DNA from: a virus
Virus record (IMG/VR): IMGVR_UViG_3300029787_000024
Coordinates: 3,809 to 67,808 of that record
Length of the DNA: 64,000 nt
Reading direction: 5' to 3' (one strand)
Part shown: positions 1,261 to 9,155 of the stretch, piece after piece
Layout: every line of letters begins with the position of its first letter
How positions within the stretch are numbered: position 1 is the first letter of the stretch
Position numbers and translations under genes: made by a program
Notes under the pieces: model-generated
Seen by the model: only the letters and a program-made list of their open reading frames with translations
What the model was told of the DNA's origin: nothing
Database searches by the model: none

Positions 1261-2025
1261 TTAAGTAAATACAGACACTATTGTTACATACCCCCCATCA
1301 ATTTCATCACTTGAACCATCTGAAGTCACTCTTATTATTAAATAATTTGTGTCATCGGCAGTTACTTCAGTGGCTAAGGTACATAGACTATCTATTGAAG
1401 TGGCTCCAGTTCCAACATCTACTATTACTTTATGTGTTATATCTCCTTTATATACATAAAAGTTCTGACCTGTGTCGCTACCATAAACCCTAACCTGTGT
1501 AGCTTTAAATCCAAGAGGTATCGCCACTGTAGCAAACATATCGTTAGAGCCATCGCTATGTAAAAATAATAAACTACTACCAATACTAGAGTCATCCATC
1601 ATTATAGGGCTACCATTATCTGCGGCTACAAAATCTTTTGGTAATATTTTTATTCTACTTCTATGACCATGCCAACCCATGTCATGCAGATTACCGCCAA
1701 CAAATGTCCACGCAACATCTGATATATGTGTAGAAGGAAAGCTGTCAGTCTCTTTATCAAACTCTATATATATCTTTTCTCCAGTTGAGAATTCCTTTAC
1801 TATATCTTGTAAAGTTTCTTTGTGCTTATTTGCAGTTATTGTAAGGGAAACCATAAATTGGTCCATACCTTGAGTTTCCGCGTCTTCAAGTATAGGTTCA
1901 AAATAAAGTTCTAACACAGTATCTGAAGAAGCATGACCACCACTAAAAGTCTTTATAGGTATAACTATATACCCTTCTGAGGTGCTATTTGTACTACTTC
2001 CATTTAATATTATAAACTTTTGCAT
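1261..2025 (-). CDS. Paralogous-family N-domain fused to a beta-rich fibre-like C-domain
   Basis: N-terminal ~110 aa align by eye with 461..763 and 2025..2375; C-terminal half is beta-rich. Confidence 0.7.
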   Translation of the reverse strand: MQKFIILNGSSTNSTSEGYIVIPIKTFSGGHASSDTVLELYFEPILEDAETQGMDQFMVSLTITANKHKETLQDIVKEFSTGEKIYIEFDKETDSFPSTHISDVAWTFVGGNLHDMGWHGHRSRIKILPKDFVAADNGSPIMMDDSSIGSSLLFLHSDGSNDMFATVAIPLGFKATQVRVYGSDTGQNFYVYKGDITHKVIVDVGTGATSIDSLCTLATEVTADDTNYLIIRVTSDGSSDEIDGGYVTIVSVFT

Positions 2026-2375
2026 TATAAGTTCTCTGTATTTACTGTTATAGCCAAAACACTAGTTACTCCACTTATAAACTCATTAGTTACTTGGTCA
2101 GCTATTGTTATAAAAATATCATTTCCTGTAGAAAATTCTTCTAAAACATTTTTAATAGTTGCAAGCTCTCCACTACATGTAACCCAAACATGGTCCCTGT
2201 CTCCACCTGCCCTTATTACCATTTCATGTATTGTTTTAAAATAAAAAACTATATTTCCATTATTTATGGTAGTAACGCCTCTAAAAGAGCTTAAAGGAAA
2301 CATAACAGAAGAAGTCCTATCATCATCGTCAGCCACGTCAGTGACATATCTAAAGTAAACATACTTTTCATTCAT
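2025..2375 (-). CDS. Hypothetical protein, paralogous ~100-aa domain family
   Basis: KYVYFR..SVMFPLSSF..EEFSTG..ITIAD. Confidence 0.8.
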   Translation of the reverse strand: MNEKYVYFRYVTDVADDDDRTSSVMFPLSSFRGVTTINNGNIVFYFKTIHEMVIRAGGDRDHVWVTCSGELATIKNVLEEFSTGNDIFITIADQVTNEFISGVTSVLAITVNTENL

Positions 2376-2379
2376 TATA

Positions 2380-2387
2380 CAAAACTA
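2380..2387 (-). promoter_or_regulatory. Bacteroidota -7 promoter element TAGTTTTG
   Basis: Exact TAnnTTTG, 4 nt before ATG at 2375. Confidence 0.65.
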
Positions 2388-2545
2388 CAAAAATTTTTTT
2401 TATTTTTTTTATACACATGGAAATGGGAAGGTCTATACTACCATAGCCCCCTCGGGCTCGGGATTTCGAACCCTCCCCCTCAAAGTCTAGAGGAAACTGT
2501 ACTACACAGAAAAAGCATCCTTATTATTAGCATAAGTAATTATTA

Positions 2546-2561
2546 TGCTGTTCCACAGTGT
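2546..2561 (+). promoter_or_regulatory. Early repeated motif copy 1 (TGCTGTTCCACAGTGT), candidate virion-RNAP promoter
   Basis: One of 5 strong intergenic same-orientation copies. Confidence 0.6.
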
Positions 2562-2574
2562 AGAAGGTGTTCGT

Positions 2575-2727
2575 TACACTCACTATTGTTCAATACAACT
2601 GTTCACTATCATCTGCTTACTTGTGTGTATGAATGGATGAGTGAACCACATTATCCTGCTATAATTACTATGAGTATGATATGATGTGTTTGATAGTTCA
2701 CTTAGTTGTATATTGTTTAGGTGATTT
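2575..2727 (+). ncRNA. Candidate multi-stem ncRNA downstream of first early motif
   Basis: No ORF; stems CAATACAACT/AGTTGTATATTG and GTTCAC-TA-TCATCTG/TGGATGA-GTGAAC. Confidence 0.4.
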
Positions 2728-2762
2728 GCATAGTTAGTATGTACTATCTGTCCCACACCCTC

Positions 2763-2793
2763 CCAAGTTACGAAAAAAAAATGACATTGTCAA
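2763..2793 (-). promoter_or_regulatory. Leftward host-type promoter TTGACA-17 nt-TAACTTGG
   Basis: TTGACA at 2793-2788 and TAACTTGG at 2770-2763. Confidence 0.5.
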
Positions 2794-2857
2794 GTGCATA
2801 TTGCTAACTATTTGGATGAGTATACTATTTGAGTGTTCTGTTCAAGTTGTGTTATTA

Positions 2858-2873
2858 TGCTGTTCTACAATGT
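2858..2873 (+). promoter_or_regulatory. Early repeated motif copy 2 (TGCTGTTCTACAATGT)
   Basis: 35 nt upstream of ATG 2909. Confidence 0.65.
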
Positions 2874-2908
2874 TTAATAAATGTTTAACCAATTAAAATT
2901 ATAATGCT

Positions 2909-3250
2909 ATGAATAACTTATATAACTATTACTGTGAATTTGAAGAAACATATGGCACAGGTTCTAATACAGCACGCAAGGTTGTAGAATACTTATCTAA
3001 CAATAGATACTTGCTACACAAATTGTTTGAAGCAACGCGTGACTTACCTTTCCATAACTATGAAGACTATCGTAAGTTTATTATATCTACATATAATCAC
3101 GATATGTATTCTCTAGTATCTGATGAGTTGCAAACTAACAAAGAACCACGTCAATGTATTGATTGTGGAGAAACTTACGAGAGTGAGCACATATGTCTCT
3201 ACGATGAAGAGCCTAACTACGAAGATTGGTGGGGAATACCTGCAGTGTAA
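2909..3250 (+). CDS. Early hypothetical protein with C-terminal CxxC...HxC Zn-ribbon-like motif
   Basis: CIDCGETYESEHIC; A/T-rich leader. Confidence 0.75.
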   Translation: MNNLYNYYCEFEETYGTGSNTARKVVEYLSNNRYLLHKLFEATRDLPFHNYEDYRKFIISTYNHDMYSLVSDELQTNKEPRQCIDCGETYESEHICLYDEEPNYEDWWGIPAV

Positions 3251-3257
3251 ACTGTTT

Positions 3258-3273
3258 TGCTGTTCCCCAATGT
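3258..3273 (+). promoter_or_regulatory. Early repeated motif copy 3 (TGCTGTTCCCCAATGT)
   Basis: Upstream of ATG 3306. Confidence 0.65.
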
Positions 3274-3305
3274 TTATAATTTGTTTAATCTAAATCTTAT
3301 TTAAA

Positions 3306-3455
3306 ATGGAAAAATTCGCTAATAAATTTCTTGATATACTAGCTAATAAAAAGGCAGAAACATTTATCATAGGCTTTCTTGGTCTTGGTATGTTATATGT
3401 TGTAGTAATGACTGTACTTCTTGCGTACACTCTAATTACTAATGGTACAGTATAA
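3306..3455 (+). CDS. Small membrane protein (49 aa, not in ORF track)
   Basis: MEKFANKFLDILANKKAETFIIGFLGLGMLYVVVMTVLLAYTLITNGTV. Confidence 0.7.
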   Translation: MEKFANKFLDILANKKAETFIIGFLGLGMLYVVVMTVLLAYTLITNGTV

Positions 3456-3517
3456 AGGATTGGTCAGTAGCCTAAATAACAACTGAAGACACCGAGATGT
3501 GGATAAACTATAATATA

Positions 3518-3578
3518 AATGAGAGTTAAGTTGGATAGAATCAGACAGCATCTTTAGATATTCAACTAATCTCTCATT
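3518..3578 (+). other. Long imperfect intergenic hairpin
   Basis: AATGAGAG-TTAAGTTGGATA pairs with TATTCAACTAA-TCTCTCATT. Confidence 0.6.
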
Positions 3579-3636
3579 ATAATCTAAGGTTAAGTCCTCT
3601 CACCTTAAGTAGAGGATATCACTATCATTAATCGCT

Positions 3637-3726
3637 ATGGATAAATCATTATACACAGAGTATGAGATACAACAAATACGCGAGTATGGTTATGTCAAAT
3701 ATCCTGTTAAAAAGAAAAAGAAATGA
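3637..3726 (+). CDS. Tiny hypothetical protein (29 aa)
   Basis: MDKSLYTEYEIQQIREYGYVKYPVKKKKK; stop overlaps next ATG (ATGA). Confidence 0.55.
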   Translation: MDKSLYTEYEIQQIREYGYVKYPVKKKKK

Positions 3727-3839
3727 AAAAACTATTATTATTAATGCTATGCATACTATTCTTATCCTCTTGTGCTTCATCTAAAATGAACGCTTGTTGG
3801 GGTAGCAATGGTAAGGCTAAAAATGGACTGTACAAGTAA
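3723..3839 (+). CDS. Small lipoprotein (38 aa)
   Basis: MKKLLLLMLCILFLSS-C signal peptide II / lipobox. Confidence 0.75.
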   Translation: MKKLLLLMLCILFLSSCASSKMNACWGSNGKAKNGLYK

Positions 3840-3844
3840 TGTTG

Positions 3845-3860
3845 TGCTGTTCTTCAATGT
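3845..3860 (+). promoter_or_regulatory. Early repeated motif copy 4 (TGCTGTTCTTCAATGT)
   Basis: Upstream of ATG 3914. Confidence 0.65.
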
Positions 3861-3913
3861 AGGTTATGTTGCTCGCCTTTAAGAGTAACGCAATTATTAA
3901 ATTATTTTAAGCT

Positions 3914-4513
3914 ATGAATTATGATAAAATTTTTAGTGGCGTTACAACAGTAATGCAAAAGAAAGACACAAACGAGGGAGTTGTGTCGGGGACTCTAACG
4001 AGTTTAAAACCAGATTTTCCTTACTTTATGTACAATGGAACAGACGCTGATGGTATCTTAAAAACAGATAAACCAGCCAAACCATTTAATATGGCAAATA
4101 TTGTACTTAAGAAAAATGTTAAAGTAAATGGTACTTATACTACCAGATACTATAAAGCATTTGCTATTAATATTCTAAATGATGTACAAAGTGAATCTAA
4201 AATAACTACATACAATACTATGATATTTAGAGGTACTACAATAGAAGAGATAGCAAAGGAAATGAAAAGTGGTGACTTAACTAAGTCTAAAGCGTTTGTA
4301 TCTATAATGATTGAAAACAATATAGATGTAACAAATGACTTTGTAGGTCAGCTTGAAAAGGGTGTAACATTTGCACAAAGATATGTAAGAAACAGTAGTG
4401 ACTTATCATTTGTTAGTGCAAAGTACTATACAGAACGTCTTAACAGACAAAATAGTACAGTTGTGTCTGAGCCTGTAACAGCAGAATTAGCTGAAGCAGA
4501 CTTACCACTATAA
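3914..4513 (+). CDS. Early hypothetical protein with acidic tail (possibly ssDNA-binding)
   Basis: Own motif and terminator; ends ELAEADLPL. Confidence 0.8.
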   Translation: MNYDKIFSGVTTVMQKKDTNEGVVSGTLTSLKPDFPYFMYNGTDADGILKTDKPAKPFNMANIVLKKNVKVNGTYTTRYYKAFAINILNDVQSESKITTYNTMIFRGTTIEEIAKEMKSGDLTKSKAFVSIMIENNIDVTNDFVGQLEKGVTFAQRYVRNSSDLSFVSAKYYTERLNRQNSTVVSEPVTAELAEADLPL

Positions 4514-4517
4514 TTAT

Positions 4518-4548
4518 TAGGGAGGGTGTAACAACTCTCCCTATTTTT
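4518..4548 (+). terminator. Intrinsic terminator
   Basis: TAGGGAGGGT/ACTCTCCCTA hairpin plus T-run. Confidence 0.8.
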
Positions 4549-4761
4549 TAAATATTATGTTCGCTACGCTCACTATTTTTTTAACCTCTGTTCGCCACAG
4601 AGGAGGCTATACGTGTCCTGCGGACATATTTTTTATAACACAAAGACTATGCACAAGACTGGTTCACTATCATAGGCACGGTAGTTTACATCAATCCTGT
4701 AATGTTTTGTTTTGCTTTTCTTTGTTGTTGTTTTTTGTTTAACTATTTAAATTATTACGCT

Positions 4762-4872
4762 ATGATTACAGATATTAATACAGAGGATAATGTTATCCTT
4801 GGCTTCTATTGTTCAGATGACAGTATTAGTGAAGATATATTTGATACATTTGTGTCAAGTTATATATCATAA
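4762..4872 (+). CDS. Tiny acidic protein (36 aa)
   Basis: MITDINTEDNVILGFYCSDDSISEDIFDTFVSSYIS; typical leader and GCTATG start. Confidence 0.55.
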   Translation: MITDINTEDNVILGFYCSDDSISEDIFDTFVSSYIS

Positions 4873-4877
4873 GATAT

Positions 4878-5022
4878 AGTAAGACGGATTAAAACCATGG
4901 AATGAAACCCAAGGTCTGCCAAGTGGGTCAAACCACGCAATAGAGTATACAAAAGGTGTAGTTTACCTCTCAAATTGGTTCTATTGTCCCGTTAAAAAAC
5001 TCGGCCATGGAGCCGTCTTACT
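4878..5022 (+). ncRNA. Candidate ~145-nt structured ncRNA
   Basis: Nested stems AGTAAGACGG/CCGTCTTACT, CCATGG/CCATGG, CAATAGAG/TTCTATTG, AGGT/ACCT. Confidence 0.55.
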
Positions 5023-5030
5023 TTTATATA

Positions 5031-5120
5031 AATAAGGATATTAGGTTACAGATTAACAATTTTTTTTGGTTATTGCACGTTATTTTTCATAATATGTTAT
5101 TCTGTAACCAATACCTTATT
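5031..5120 (+). ncRNA. Long hairpin with U-rich loop containing an anti-ATG sequence
   Basis: Arms 5031-5058 and 5095-5120; loop contains TTATTTTTCATAAT. Confidence 0.5.
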
Positions 5121-5129
5121 ACAATATTC

Positions 5130-5217
5130 AGGGGAGCGCTCGGCGTAAGTAGCGGTTATTCACTCAGTCGTACGTGTAAGCTGCAGCTAAGCACGTGTGA
5201 GCTCCCCTATTTTTTTT
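5130..5217 (+). ncRNA. GC-rich multi-stem element ending in a U-tract
   Basis: AGGGGAGC/GCTCCCCT outer stem; inner ACGTG/CACGT and TTCAC/GTGAG. Confidence 0.5.
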
Positions 5218-5236
5218 AACCTTTAAAATTTATGCT

Positions 5237-5452
5237 ATGGAAATATATGGAATTAAAATGAAAACATATTTATTTAACAATATTACAGATGAAACAATAA
5301 CTAAAGAATGTGTTATAGATAATACAATGTATCAAACATTAGAAGACGCTGTAATTCAATTAGAATTAATATACAATTCACCAGAATTTGATGATGAATC
5401 AGATGAGGTAGAGTATTATATAGAATCATATACATTAGAAATAAACGATTAA
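5237..5452 (+). CDS. Small acidic early protein
   Basis: ORF track; TTAACCTTTAAAATT leader. Confidence 0.7.
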   Translation: MEIYGIKMKTYLFNNITDETITKECVIDNTMYQTLEDAVIQLELIYNSPEFDDESDEVEYYIESYTLEIND

Positions 5453-5470
5453 CCTTTAAAATATATAATT

Positions 5471-5599
5471 ATGCTTGAAAAAAATAATGATTATGAAGAT
5501 AATCCTGAATATGATAAAATAAATAAAGCTATTCAAGAAGAATTAGAACAAGAAATGATTATGCATACTAAAGATATGTTAAAAGAAATGAAAAGTTAA
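5471..5599 (+). CDS. Small acidic protein (42 aa)
   Basis: MLEKNNDYEDNPEYDKINKAIQEELEQEMIMHTKDMLKEMKS; same leader type. Confidence 0.6.
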   Translation: MLEKNNDYEDNPEYDKINKAIQEELEQEMIMHTKDMLKEMKS

Positions 5600-5690
5600 G
5601 TTTTTCATAGCGAGCCACAGGTAAGTGTGGGACTACACGGTCAAATTTTAAACAAAATCAATGAAAGAGTGCTTACCCACTCTTTTTTTT
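5600..5690 (+). ncRNA. Candidate kissing-loop RNA / terminator
   Basis: CCACA-GGTAAG-TGTGG and AAAGAGTG-CTTACC-CACTCTTT have exactly complementary loops. Confidence 0.55.
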
Positions 5691-5717
5691 ATTAACTATC
5701 ACTAAAAATTTACAACC

Positions 5718-5789
5718 ATGGACGATATTACAGACAATATATTTATAGCAATCATTATACTATTCCTTGCTTATATGTTTATAGGATAA
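5718..5789 (+). CDS. Tiny single-TM peptide (23 aa)
   Basis: MDDITDNIFIAIIILFLAYMFIG. Confidence 0.5.
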   Translation: MDDITDNIFIAIIILFLAYMFIG

Positions 5790-5794
5790 TGTTT

Positions 5795-5810
5795 TGCTGT
5801 TCTACAAAGT
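5795..5810 (+). promoter_or_regulatory. Early repeated motif copy 5 (TGCTGTTCTACAAAGT)
   Basis: Upstream of ATG 5838. Confidence 0.65.
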
Positions 5811-5837
5811 TATGTTTAACCTTATAAAATTAAAATT

Positions 5838-6317
5838 ATGTCAAAAGAAAATTTAAGACACGCTACTATATTAGAAGCTCTACATGAGTATAAAAAAACT
5901 ATAGATAGCGGTGCGATGTACAACGAAAAAGATGTACAAGAAACTATATATCAAATAGAGGATTTAGTTAGTAACAAGGCTATTATTCGTAGTAAAAACC
6001 AAAGACCTGAAACTATTACAGGTAACATCATATTAGAGTGTTATGATGTGTATAAAATGTTTAAATATATTATAAAAGATAGTCCCAATAAAGTAAGAAC
6101 ATCTTTATTAGATTCTAAATCAAATATACCTGTTAACGCTAATGTGTCATTACGTTATAATGAAAGTTGGGACGAACCTAGAAGGCTTGAAGAAGTTATT
6201 CTTACATTAATAGACACATTAAATTTTACTATGGGTCATATACCTGATACGTATCTTAAAGCAATAAAGAAAAATATTAATGGAGAAATTAAAAGAAGAA
6301 AAGAATGCGAAGAATAG
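5838..6317 (+). CDS. Hypothetical protein
   Basis: ORF track, good leader. Confidence 0.8.
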   Translation: MSKENLRHATILEALHEYKKTIDSGAMYNEKDVQETIYQIEDLVSNKAIIRSKNQRPETITGNIILECYDVYKMFKYIIKDSPNKVRTSLLDSKSNIPVNANVSLRYNESWDEPRRLEEVILTLIDTLNFTMGHIPDTYLKAIKKNINGEIKRRKECEE

Positions 6318-6493
6318 ATGATGAGTCAGTAAATGGTGTTCCCTATGAGGCTATAGAGGATTACCGAGAAATACAAGAGCCTTATTGGACTTGTGTTAGT
6401 GCGTTTGATGTGGAGTATTCACTATCATGCGACCAATCAATAGAAAATAACAAATTATTAACTAAAAAATTATATAAATTATGTGTGGATTAG
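6305..6493 (+). CDS. Hypothetical protein (uncertain)
   Basis: Fills the gap; the 3' part looks like the leader of the next gene. Confidence 0.4.
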   Translation: MRRIDDESVNGVPYEAIEDYREIQEPYWTCVSAFDVEYSLSCDQSIENNKLLTKKLYKLCVD

Positions 6494-7407
6494 TAGGATT
6501 CAGTGGTAAAGCTAATACAAGTGTGTTTAAGGCTTTACATTTATTAGCAGATAACGACAGTAGGGGAGGTCACTCTACTGGATTATTTGTAAATGGTAAG
6601 ATTTATAAGACTGTTGAAGAGTCTATGAATATATTACCAATGCTTAAAACAAGTAAAACAGGTAGTGTTCTTATAGGACATACAAGGTATGCAACTCATG
6701 GTGAACACACCGTTGAGAACGCTCACCCTTATCAATATGGTAATATAGTAGGCGCTCATAACGGAGTTCTATCAAATTACGAAGAGGTGGGTAAAAAGTT
6801 TAATATCAAGAAAACTACTGTTGACTCTCAAATGATATTTAAATTATTGTCACAAGAAAAGAATGATAAGCATTTAGGCTTATTTAGTGGAGCAAAGAAT
6901 GTCTTGTTCACAAAGGGTGATAACAAATTATATATATATCGTAAAGACAATCCTTTATATTATCTTGAAACAGAAGAAGGTATGTATGTAAGTTCTTTAG
7001 AAGAAGGACTTGAAAAGATTAAGAAAAAGAAAGATAAAGTTAAGGAAGTGCCTGAAAATCAGTTATTTACAATAGAAAATGGTAAGCTTATAAGTAAACA
7101 AAAGATTAAGCATAAGCCTATAGCCGCTAAGGTTTCTGTAAATACAGATTGGAGAAGTTATGGCTCACGTAATTATTATAGTAATCATTATGGTGGTCAT
7201 CTTGCAAGAGACTTTAATAACGACCATTTCAATAATGATGATGAACTAAATGACGACGATTTAGAAAAAGAACATTTTGATGAGGTTAATAACCACGCAA
7301 ACTTTGTTCACGATTTATATTGTACTGATAGATTTAATGAGGAAGAGTCTTCAAAGTTAATGGAATTGTATAACTATTTAAACACTATGGCTTATGAGTA
7401 CTACTAA
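6481..7407 (+). CDS. Class II (Ntn) glutamine amidotransferase domain protein
   Basis: N-terminal MCG, RG..STG, GHTRYAT, NAHP, AHNG, VDS motifs. Confidence 0.92.
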   Translation: MCGLVGFSGKANTSVFKALHLLADNDSRGGHSTGLFVNGKIYKTVEESMNILPMLKTSKTGSVLIGHTRYATHGEHTVENAHPYQYGNIVGAHNGVLSNYEEVGKKFNIKKTTVDSQMIFKLLSQEKNDKHLGLFSGAKNVLFTKGDNKLYIYRKDNPLYYLETEEGMYVSSLEEGLEKIKKKKDKVKEVPENQLFTIENGKLISKQKIKHKPIAAKVSVNTDWRSYGSRNYYSNHYGGHLARDFNNDHFNNDDELNDDDLEKEHFDEVNNHANFVHDLYCTDRFNEEESSKLMELYNYLNTMAYEYY

Positions 7408-8749
7408 AGAGGAATTATTAGAATGTGTGTGTGGAGATTGGCACCCAATAGATGAGTGTTATGAATTATATGGAGGGGGCTATGTCCACGAAGATGACAA
7501 AGATGATTATGTTCAGCTTTCAAGTGATTGCGACAGTTTATACTGTCATCAAGATGAAGTTATTATGTGTGAATGTAATGGGGAATGGTATCCTGAAGAA
7601 TGTTTTTCTGATTACGAAGTTGAATATGACAACTATGATGAGTTATACAGATTCACAGATAATATGACGTGGGGTTACTATAACAGAAATCATGAAGGTT
7701 GGTTTAACAGTGAATGTGATTATGTGCTTTCAGAGAATAATGACGTTTATTTTATGGATAGCTCCGTTGCAGAACGTTGTGGTTATATATATTCAGAAAA
7801 CAGGGAAGATTGGATACACGAAGATGATTGGGATGAGGATGAGGATGGAGATAACGGTGAAGAGTGGGATAATACATATGAATTATTAGATAAAAGATTT
7901 GATAAAACATTTGGCATGAAATATACATTTGGGGTTGAAATAGAAACTTCTGATGGATATATGGATTATCAAGAAAATTTAAATCTTAAAGCTGTCTTTG
8001 ACGGTAGTATTAATGGTAAAGAATATGTAACTGGTTGTATGTCAGGTAATTCTGGTGTTAATATGCTAGATAAGATATGTAATTTATTATCACATCACGA
8101 ATGTTATGTAGACTCTACTTGTGGCGTTCATGTTCATATAGGTGGTGCTAACTTCAATAGAAGATTTAGTATACTATCTATTATGCTTGGAAATATGCTT
8201 CAAGATGAGATATTCTCTATGTTACCAAAGTCAAGAGGTAAGAGTAGTTATTGTGTAGTAATACCTGATAAGTTCTATAAATTAAGAACTGTTAATAAAA
8301 GGCTTTATCCAAGAACACATAGCAGAATGCTTAAGCTTCTTGCTGAGTATTTATATTCTGACAGTGCTGAATTTGGTAGAGCTAATAATAAGAAAGGGCG
8401 TCATCCATATGGAAGATACTGTAGCTCAAGGTATAAGTGGTTAAACTTAAACAACTGTAGTTACGATAAGTCTGGGCCTGATACTATTGAGTTCAGATGT
8501 CACAGTGGCTCAAGAGACTTTAAGAAAATTTATAATTGGTTATTAATCTGTATGTGCTTTGTAAGGTATGTAGAGAATAATTCAAGACAGATTATAGATA
8601 AATATAAAACGTGGAAATCTGACCCAGGATGTTTAATGTCAGATAGGGTTACTCTACGTGATATAGTCTCAGAAGGTCTTGGTAAGGACGCTATGCCTTT
8701 ATTAGAATATATAGATAAGAGAAAGGATAAGTTCCTTAAGCAGGATTAA
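7394..8749 (+). CDS. Putative amidoligase (COOH-NH2 ligase, Amidoligase_2-like) with acidic Cys-rich N-terminus
   Basis: FGVEIE, DGSI, CGVHVHI, RY..LN, TIEFR motifs. Confidence 0.88.
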   Translation: MSTTKEELLECVCGDWHPIDECYELYGGGYVHEDDKDDYVQLSSDCDSLYCHQDEVIMCECNGEWYPEECFSDYEVEYDNYDELYRFTDNMTWGYYNRNHEGWFNSECDYVLSENNDVYFMDSSVAERCGYIYSENREDWIHEDDWDEDEDGDNGEEWDNTYELLDKRFDKTFGMKYTFGVEIETSDGYMDYQENLNLKAVFDGSINGKEYVTGCMSGNSGVNMLDKICNLLSHHECYVDSTCGVHVHIGGANFNRRFSILSIMLGNMLQDEIFSMLPKSRGKSSYCVVIPDKFYKLRTVNKRLYPRTHSRMLKLLAEYLYSDSAEFGRANNKKGRHPYGRYCSSRYKWLNLNNCSYDKSGPDTIEFRCHSGSRDFKKIYNWLLICMCFVRYVENNSRQIIDKYKTWKSDPGCLMSDRVTLRDIVSEGLGKDAMPLLEYIDKRKDKFLKQD

Positions 8750-8764
8750 TCGCTGCTCAATTAG

Positions 8765-8838
8765 AAAGGTGTGTGTATAAGTTAAATGTCCAGTTAACTT
8801 AGTTACTTTAAATGTGTTCGGTAAACACACACCTTTTT
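8765..8838 (+). terminator. Large terminator-like structure at end of early block
   Basis: AAAGGTGTGTGT/ACACACACCTTT with inner TAAGTTAA/TTAACTTA hairpin; T-run. Confidence 0.65.
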
Positions 8839-8918
8839 AGTTTTATGCTGTTGTTCACTATCATTATGTTAACAACTTTATTTTATTATTAACAATTATT
8901 TATTTAAATTTACAAACC

Positions 8919-9155
8919 ATGAAAAAACTTATTATAATATGTATGCTATCAGTAGGCATTTGTTTACTAATAGTATTATCAAAACTAAGCCATAAAGCTA
9001 GTCAAGTAGAAATTTTACAAGAACAGATTAATAGTCAAGAATTATATATAAAAGATATATATATAAATACTAATTATAGTCATGTTAATTCTTTATACTT
9101 AGAAATTATGGACTTAGGTGCTCAATTAGATTCAATGAAATTAAAATATGATTAA
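8919..9155 (+). CDS. Hypothetical protein with N-terminal TM/signal segment
   Basis: MKKLIIICMLSVGICLLIVL. Confidence 0.7.
   Translation: MKKLIIICMLSVGICLLIVLSKLSHKASQVEILQEQINSQELYIKDIYINTNYSHVNSLYLEIMDLGAQLDSMKLKYD

Follow-up and report, generated by a model that had tools for sequence, protein, structure and literature searches.

Phage early regions house host-takeover and counter-defense functions, and they are nearly always read as lists of small proteins. The locus described here raises the question of whether such a region may also carry a set of RNA genes. It is an island at positions 4515–5235 of a 64,000-nucleotide (nt) stretch of DNA, termed the window, which comprises bases 3809–67808 of a 67.8-kb virus genome (IMG/VR record IMGVR_UViG_3300029787_000024) from a marine crAss-like phage. 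An earlier reading of this DNA, made from its letters and termed here the sequence-only reading, had described five separate structures in the island and interpreted them as structured non-coding RNAs lying back to back in a single array, processed from the transcript of a virion RNA polymerase and forming, with elements nearby, a candidate RNA-based system of host takeover or anti-defense. Comparison with related loci indicates that the new RNA folds in the stretch are real and conserved, and that they form a mosaic much as genes do. RNA folds, and not open reading frames (ORFs), are the best conserved parts of this presumed early region, and their genetics resembles that of accessory genes, in that they are gained, lost and re-positioned independently and can be present in one strain and absent from another.

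Each of the five named stretches was folded as a single + strand sequence and compared with 200 shuffles, and four of the five are structured. The strongest fold is that of 5028–5124 (module B; z −5.65, 0/200 shuffles equal), followed by 4876–5024 (module A; z −3.88, 0/200), 4578–4636 (two small hairpins; z −2.63, 4/200) and 5126–5222 (module C; z −2.36, 5/200). The remaining stretch, 4640–4692, is unstructured (z +0.03, 98/200), and the structure proposed at 4644–4687 is instead a conserved sequence motif without a fold. Rather than five equivalent RNAs, the island holds the three folded modules A, B and C, a small conserved hairpin (hpX), and two hairpins, T1 and T2, that have the form of ordinary terminators. 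Nor is the island one array, because a real gene of 36 amino acids (aa) and a probable promoter or leader motif at 4663–4683 divide it. An element noted at 5600, just downstream of the island, is both conserved and folded, and is referred to as module D.

A search with the amidoligase gene of the window (7394–8749) led to related loci in IMG/VR and in ocean metagenome contigs (11, then 19). The 30 related loci were compared by blastn and nhmmer, and covariance models of A, C and D (R1, R2 and R3, respectively) were run against 35 sources; many of the loci are short contigs ending before the region, and source counts are not genome frequencies. Modules B and C recur in the same five loci (L008, L087, L088, L089 and L093), and D recurs in these and in L007. 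Model R2 finds C in 6/35 sources at E ≤ 7.7e-27 (next best E 0.019), and R3 finds D in 7/35 at E ≤ 4.5e-14 (next best E 0.13). Module A is rarer: R1 detects it in 3/35 sources at E ≤ 3.7e-10, namely the window, L087 (whose contig starts inside A, so that the 5′ part is cut) and the distant L012, with one additional marginal match in L084 (E 0.94). Beyond these, the three models reveal no copies or paralogues in the 35 sources.

Where the modules exist, their order (A-B-C-...-D) is kept while the intervening content changes. An ORF lies between B and C in L088 and L089, a different ORF follows C in L093, and C is directly followed by D in L008. On its 5′ side, module C thus has either B or an ORF, and on its 3′ side it has either D itself or an ORF, which is one of two that are unrelated. 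As far as the compared loci indicate, each relative has its own combination of modules and small ORFs, the two being reshuffled independently, and the small-ORF content is as mosaic as the RNA content.

The helices of the modules are kept in the relatives through compensatory changes, and their G-U pairs fit only the + strand. In six sequences, the basal stem of B has 118/120 cells paired, with three pairs changed on both sides, and a four-helix model of C has 108/108 cells paired, with five pairs changed on both sides (four in the closing stem and one inner pair). For D, 108/108 cells are paired and six pairs are changed on both sides, a score reached by 0/500 shuffles. In a model-fitted alignment of A, 83/84 cells are paired and 11 pairs are changed on both sides. 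The variable wobbles are all G-U on the + strand, and U-runs stand 3′ of stems on the + strand only.

This asymmetry bears on a reading in which the stems act in DNA, as N4-like hairpin promoters for a virion RNA polymerase (vRNAP), as an origin, or as operator palindromes. The island does lie in an early region near a divergent control region, the arms of B are conserved in sequence (14/20 stem pairs invariant), and a −35/−10-like pair, TTGGTT-16-CATAAT, is found in the apex of B in three sequences (window, L008 and L093). The DNA-level reading is contradicted by the G-U asymmetry between strands, since variable positions give G-U on the + strand (nine cells in B), which would be A-C mismatches on the opposite strand. 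Moreover, the two one-base bulges of B, kept in all six sequences, are one-sided and unsuited to a symmetric operator. The apical 35–60 nt of B are variable and are replaced outright in L087, L088 and L089, and because of this replacement in 3/6 sequences the idea that B generally carries a promoter in its apical loop was rejected. Promoter-like matches are also not enriched (45 compared to 40.5 expected), and a preprint on Cellulophaga phage phi14:2 reports no common motif upstream of the early transcripts of that phage (Drobysheva et al., bioRxiv 10.1101/2020.03.07.982082). DNA-level signals are a most improbable explanation of the island. The coordinates of the features are collected in Table 1.

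Table 1. Features of the island and of the adjoining module D (window positions).
Feature	Positions	Strand	Description	Basis
T1	4518–4549	+	Intrinsic-terminator-like 10-bp hairpin (4518–4543) and T6	Fold (z −4.39), terminator scan
hpX	4585–4603	+	Small conserved hairpin, CCUCUGU/ACAGAGG	Fold
T2	4613–4634	+	Terminator-like 6-bp hairpin (4613–4627) and AT6	Fold, terminator scan
Motif	4663–4683	+	TTCACTATCAT-N2-GCACGGTA, no fold	Conserved in relatives; fold z +0.03
36-aa gene	4762–4872	+	Early gene, real	35-aa homologues in L088 and L089
Module A	4874–5031	+	Cassette; folded RNA 4878–5022 with five helices	Fold (z −3.4 to −3.9)
A, helix P1	4878–4887/5013–5022	+		
A, helix P2	4895–4900/5005–5010	+		
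A, helix P3	4923–4926/4933–4936	+		
A, helix P4	4937–4945/4979–4987	+		
A, helix P5	4954–4958/4964–4968	+		
Module B	5031–5120	+	Long bulged hairpin; 20-bp basal stem, 5031–5052 with 5101–5120	Fold (z −5.65)
Module C	5130–5217	+	79-nt RNA closed by P1 (5130–5137/5201–5208), then A and U8	
Module D	5605–5692	+	Invariant 5′ stretch, three hairpins, U8 end	
D, hairpin 1	5615–5630	+	Loop GGUAAG; followed by a variable hairpin	
D, terminator hairpin	about 5665–5684	+	Loop CUUACC, then U8	

Gain and loss are most directly seen for module A. When contigs of four marine sequencing runs were compared with the window, one contig of run X8, which differs from the window at only 3 of 474 nt, was found to join 4873 to 5032, such that exactly the 158 nt of A are absent. 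This natural A-less strain has the same junction as the A-less relative L008. Three letters (ATA) are shared at the junction, which could be a target duplication or equally a microhomology left by deletion. The X8 strain also carries 532 extra letters at 5475, and L093 has an extra ORF (MPNWCF..., at 553–1075) at the corresponding place.

The position occupied by A is variable in other relatives as well. This slot is empty in L008 and L093, and it holds unrelated non-coding inserts of 366 nt in L088 (4830–5195) and 316 nt in L089 (1810–2125). Both inserts are closed by long-range stems and have no convincing ORF. They match no Rfam family and have no relatives among the fetched loci, making them singletons, and their folds are not clearly better than those of shuffles (z −2.02 and +0.17). 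Module A itself follows the 36-aa gene in the window, but in L012 it stands before the motif and leader. In that distant locus, whose amidoligase is just 48% identical, the P4/P5 core of A is kept; the outer helices P1 and P2 are wholly rewritten yet paired, and the sequences of the central helix and loops are invariant.

These observations allow module A and the slot inserts to be viewed as mobile DNA of the miniature inverted-repeat transposable element (MITE) type, in which the closing stem would be a pair of terminal inverted repeats. The exact presence or absence of A with a 3-nt repeat at the joint would fit such an element, as would its inverted ends of 9–10 nt, its different place in L012, and the different inserts with inverted ends in the same slot of L088 and L089. 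MITEs, however, are recognized by conserved terminal repeats in several dispersed copies, and A has the reverse of what a transposase-bound element should have: its ends differ completely between the window and L012, and its core is conserved. It occurs in one copy per genome, and a search of IMG/VR with a 16-nt word from its core matched 65 stretches, of which one was a related contig and that one of this lineage; the same word gave three chance matches, without further likeness, in 185,579 species genomes. In addition, P2 of L012 uses U-G pairs, which are workable only as + strand RNA, and no transposase gene is seen adjoining A. The unconserved ends, conserved core and single copy per genome contradict the mobile-DNA reading, which is improbable.

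It has also to be considered whether this phage lineage exchanges autonomous structured-RNA cassettes at a hot spot, namely the slot that separates the 36-aa gene from B and that contains A, one of two unrelated inserts, or nothing. Such swapping would parallel the exchange of small anti-defense protein genes in phage early regions. In this form of the proposal A, C and D would be new classes of RNA effectors, for example decoys or inhibitors of host defense or of takeover targets, which is a doubtful extension of the sequence evidence.

Module C is ~95% identical to its five relatives compared to ~78–84% for the flanking genes (local alignments, in which the coding values are somewhat inflated). 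Its interior is nearly invariant, except that L088, L087 and L093 carry insertions of 18–41 nt, all at a single apical loop. Peripheral stems of functional RNAs take insertions in this manner. Three positions of C change together in a pattern unlike that of the closing-stem variants, which points to repeated events or recombination. A word from the core of C matched two stretches in IMG/VR, one of them by chance in a coding region, and none of the 185,579 species genomes.

The closing stem P1 of C and the U-run behind it can be seen by eye in 6/6 sequences, and this arrangement introduces the main rival explanation. The island may be purely cis-acting punctuation, made up of terminators or attenuators, RNase III sites, stabilizing hairpins and maybe nut/put-type sites, that tunes the neighboring genes. 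A scan of positions 2000–9000 found 7 intrinsic terminator sites compared to 1.8 ± 1.1 in shuffles, and three of the elements discussed here, T1, T2 and the last hairpin of D (5663–5686 and T8), are G+C-rich hairpins followed by a U-run in textbook form. The closing stem of A is also followed by a U-rich run, which is weaker than that of C. Module C is absent from the scan list because its stem closes a conserved interior of 60–100 nt instead of a loop of 3–8 nt. In most genomes, C and D adjoin the leader of the next ORF, and the U-run 3′ of C doubles as the start of that conserved leader.

Module B lends itself to the same explanation. RNase III hairpins in the early region of phage T7 are duplexes of ~20 bp with small bulges, and they lie between the units of a polycistronic region. 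Module B resembles these sites in having 20 pairs, or about two duplex turns, with two tolerable one-base bulges, a position between units of an early polycistronic region, and an apex free to vary; this is a likeness of shape only. The basal stem of B is, however, far more conserved in sequence than a site recognized by shape would need.

Punctuation would explain T1 and T2, perhaps B, and the terminator halves of C and D, but it does not explain the other features. A terminator or stabilizer can do without a conserved unpaired core, whereas in C and A it is the interior that is best conserved. The modules keep their sequence when their neighbors are exchanged, and in L008 no ORF separates C from D. 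Furthermore, A is gained or lost between near-identical strains with unchanged flanks, and it stands in another context in L012. The sequence-only reading had held that its proposal would fail if all of the structures were terminators or RNase III sites; this description applies to T1 and T2 and possibly to B, but not to A and C with their conserved unpaired cores. Punctuation alone is a possible account of the island, to be held tentatively.

The loops GGUAAG and CUUACC of module D are complementary, and the loop–loop pair, which is among the six pairs changed on both sides, covaries (G-C in four sequences, G-U in one and A-U in one). In the hot-spot proposal this pair could give a compact or multimerizing fold. 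Since one of the loops belongs to the terminator hairpin, the pair would also fit termination control. In all seven sequences D has the features of a trans-acting base-pairing small RNA, with an invariant 5′ stretch, two hairpins, and a terminator with U8. A word from its core matched two stretches in IMG/VR, both already known.

The 5′ end of D offers a weak lead to a possible seed. Eight-nucleotide words at 5601 and 5604 are antisense to at least two early start regions, a property found at only 8 of the 3592 positions in 2400–6000, these two included. Five early ORFs start with GCTATG, in a context antisense to the 5′ end of D, so that D might act as an anti-start-codon RNA. This reading is weak because relatives that keep D lack most of the GCTATG starts; L008 has just one, and L093 has none.

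The explanation preferred here, for which the case is about evenly balanced, is that A, B and C, together with D, are accessory RNA modules, each autonomous, that early transcripts carry as they run rightward. The block would be transcribed rightward, and T1 and T2 would end the upstream unit. A new unit would then start near the TTCACTATCAT motif, with the 36-aa gene first and A, B and C behind it. Modules A and C may fold into compact domains with paired 5′ and 3′ ends, and B could be a double-strand-specific processing or stabilizing site between them. The stems and U-runs of C and D would end or attenuate transcription and protect the 3′ end. Whether released or embedded, the modules, if transcribed, processed and stable, would act on their targets by way of the unpaired cores that are conserved in them, and protein binding is the most probable mode. 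They would thereby serve accessory functions specific to host or strain, as RNA counterparts of the small accessory ORFs around them.

Several points weigh against autonomous modules. The samples are small, with 6–7 sequences for B, C and D and three for A, one of them cut, and the sequences are related, so that several compensatory pairs may represent one or two events. This applies in particular to the four double changes in P1 of C, which are common to L008 and L093 and possibly reflect one or two events. The counts for A were taken from a model-fitted alignment, which leans toward the model, and one marginal row, that of L084 (E 0.94), is included in them. The covariation thus gives good indications, not proof, because the samples are small and related. 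The interior fold of C is ambiguous, as RNAalifold prefers a rod while single-sequence folds differ, and its single-sequence z-scores are modest (−1.45 to −3.09). Because the U-run behind C also starts the conserved leader of the next ORF and serves as both, a "terminator" and a "leader" are indistinguishable there. No module was found outside a narrow lineage by words in IMG/VR and the species genomes or by models in the 35 sources, and none of the 24 runs listed as containing the sequence is an RNA run.

Among known systems, the closest precedent is phi14:2, which is likewise a marine crAss-like phage with non-coding stretches among its first rightward genes. The preprint reports that transcripts of long intergenic regions in its early block run rightward, are present from the earliest time point at levels above those of most genes, and are persistent, abundant and of unknown function (Drobysheva et al., bioRxiv 10.1101/2020.03.07.982082). 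Its early non-coding region differs from the present one in that it has no similarity to A, B/C or D by nhmmer, blastn or models R1–R3. Literature on non-coding or structured RNAs of crAss-like phages yielded nothing on these elements besides this preprint. The present finding falls among phage early-region non-coding RNAs, and the folds themselves are new.

The genome of phi14:2 (L102, NC_021806) contains a transfer-messenger RNA (tmRNA) gene called by ARAGORN at 4031–4500, with the tag GSSVQKLAMVA*. Rfam scores it at 46 bits against a 47-bit cut-off (E 2.6e-16). It lies inside a 1.7-kb unannotated gap between g004 and g006, which is the source region of the abundant early non-coding transcripts described in the preprint (bioRxiv 10.1101/2020.03.07.982082). 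This is a further difference, as ARAGORN finds no tmRNA in the window or in the 30 related loci.

Other comparisons concern single elements. The nut sites of phage lambda (boxA/boxB) and the put sites of HK022 are short conserved stem-loops with conserved loops; they are found upstream of terminators in early transcripts, each behind a linear stretch that is also conserved. The 5′ half of D is similar to these in look, a likeness of shape without any likeness of sequence. Intrinsic terminators are fully matched by T1, T2 and the last hairpin of D, and they differ from C in its long conserved interior and in its U-run shared with the leader.

If the modules are expressed as discrete RNAs, they would form an RNA effector set for crAss-like phages, which are abundant but little studied in their early biology, and they would be concrete candidates for the kind of RNA that makes up the unexplained abundant early non-coding transcripts of phi14:2. 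If they are punctuation only, they would still provide a clean comparative map of how early transcripts are cut into units.

The upstream part of the island is of more ordinary composition. T1 lies directly 3′ of the stop codon of a 199-aa gene (3914–4513), and in L008, L012, L088 and L089 the same place has a hairpin and T-run of different sequence. Terminators generally recur at a site with differing sequence. The small hairpin hpX is kept in L088 and reads CCCCUGU/ACAGGGG, changed on both sides, in L089, while T2 is specific to the window and does not occur at this place in L088 or L089. The 36-aa ORF had been judged convincing from its sequence, and its homologues, which share its C-terminus, bear this out (82.5% nt identity to that of L089). 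Longer ORFs overlapping the structures (4557–4742 and 5007–5219) have no counterpart in L008. The island had also been described as richer in G+C than its surroundings, which is true of its immediate flanks (0.34–0.385 compared to 0.21–0.30), but coding stretches such as 6501–6800 reach 0.34–0.36.

The unfolded motif between T2 and the 36-aa gene has the general form TTCACTATCAT-(0–3 nt)-GCRCGGTA and stands 5′ of the pyrimidine-rich leader of the small gene in five relatives. It precedes the homologous leader in L008, L012, L088 and L089, and the contig of L093 is cut inside it. It may be inferred to be a candidate promoter or start region of the 36-aa gene unit. The TTCACTATCAT 11-mer has six exact copies in the window (2602, 4663, 6418, 8854, 16767 and 22226), all on the + strand and two of them inside − strand genes; the chance expectation for an 11-mer is far below one. 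A second motif, TTGCTGTTCNNCAANGT, occurs at 2545, 2857, 3257, 3844 and 5794 (five matches compared to 0.48 expected), with a weaker copy at 4705. It precedes four further early ORFs, 50–75 nt upstream of their starts, and is followed by a shared leader of the form GTTTAACC...AAAATTAT...ATG. The motif probably serves the early genes as a promoter or leader signal.

The statement that the structures match no tRNA, CRISPR or ribozyme consensus agrees with ARAGORN, Rfam and repeat searches, all of which were negative. Rfam 15, whose families include riboswitches, ribozymes, sRNAs, 6S, SRP, RNase P, group I/II introns and CRISPR repeats, gives no match at the gathering cut-off anywhere in the window or in L008, L012, L087, L088, L089 and L093. 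Permissive Rfam searches of 2300–6000 give three chance-level matches (E 1.3–4.5), all outside the island, and with the relatives included they give just matches of E 0.66–4.5 to unrelated snoRNA and sRNA models. ARAGORN reports no tRNA or tmRNA genes in the window or the 30 related loci, and its detection of the phi14:2 tmRNA is a positive control of sorts. No regularly spaced direct repeats of 25–50 nt, as in CRISPR, were found; the sole multi-copy family in 2300–6000 is a 24-nt motif whose copies stand before ORFs at irregular spacings of 312–1082 nt. A blastn search of 3900–5900 against 50,697 phage records gave no match, searches with neighboring proteins in IMG/VR gave 0 and 3 distant loci, and a search with an alignment of the 199-aa protein returned only two contigs, both already known.

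The phage is identified as marine crAss-like because of its capsid, portal and muzzle matches, its amidoligase relatives in ocean contigs, and the marine origin of all DNA runs containing the stretch. The capsid protein matches the Crassvirus major capsid family, with crAss-like and Flavobacterium phages as its nearest named relatives (identity <30%), the portal matches P22-like portals, and a 2023-aa ORF matches the crAss001 muzzle protein. The island lies inside a block of small + strand ORFs that begins at a divergent gap of ~500 nt (2376–2908) and leads into genes for a glutamine amidotransferase, an amidoligase and a DnaB-type helicase. By analogy with phi14:2, this rightward block is presumed to be early and to be read by a virion polymerase.

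None of three giant ORFs that were tested matched a solved crAss vRNAP or a PHROG RNA polymerase family. The 1880-aa ORF has a DFDGD word but matches LysM and tape-measure families, and the 2023-aa ORF matches the muzzle protein. The 4151-aa ORF matched nothing in the searches made. The class-II glutamine amidotransferase and amidoligase genes (6481–8749) are adjacent and overlapping, and the pair is kept throughout the lineage, down to 36% identity. The two enzymes would be early-expressed and would modify a peptide or metabolite.

Three further non-coding stretches stand out upstream of the island. The first, 2712–2856 in the divergent gap, is conserved even in the distant (~48% aa) lineage, with 92% identity over 49 nt (2749–2797) to L009, L091 and L092 and 77–81% over ~125–150 nt to L010–L013 and L090. 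Neither strand folds significantly (z +0.32 and +0.62), and the stretch is possibly a shared control region. The second, 2419–2510 in the same gap, is a G+C-rich patch whose − strand has GGGTTCGAAATCCC, which resembles a T-arm; no tRNA is called there by ARAGORN, and the patch could be a tRNA-derived fragment, such as the remnant of an attachment site. The third, 3453–3640, is far better conserved than its surroundings (98.5% over 66 nt in L008, 93% over 132 nt in L088 and 95% over 64 nt in L089). It contains a long hairpin (~3518–3577) between TATAAT words and a second hairpin, with fold z-scores of only −1.64 and −0.85, and it has an ATCACTATCAT motif 9 nt upstream of the ATG at 3637.

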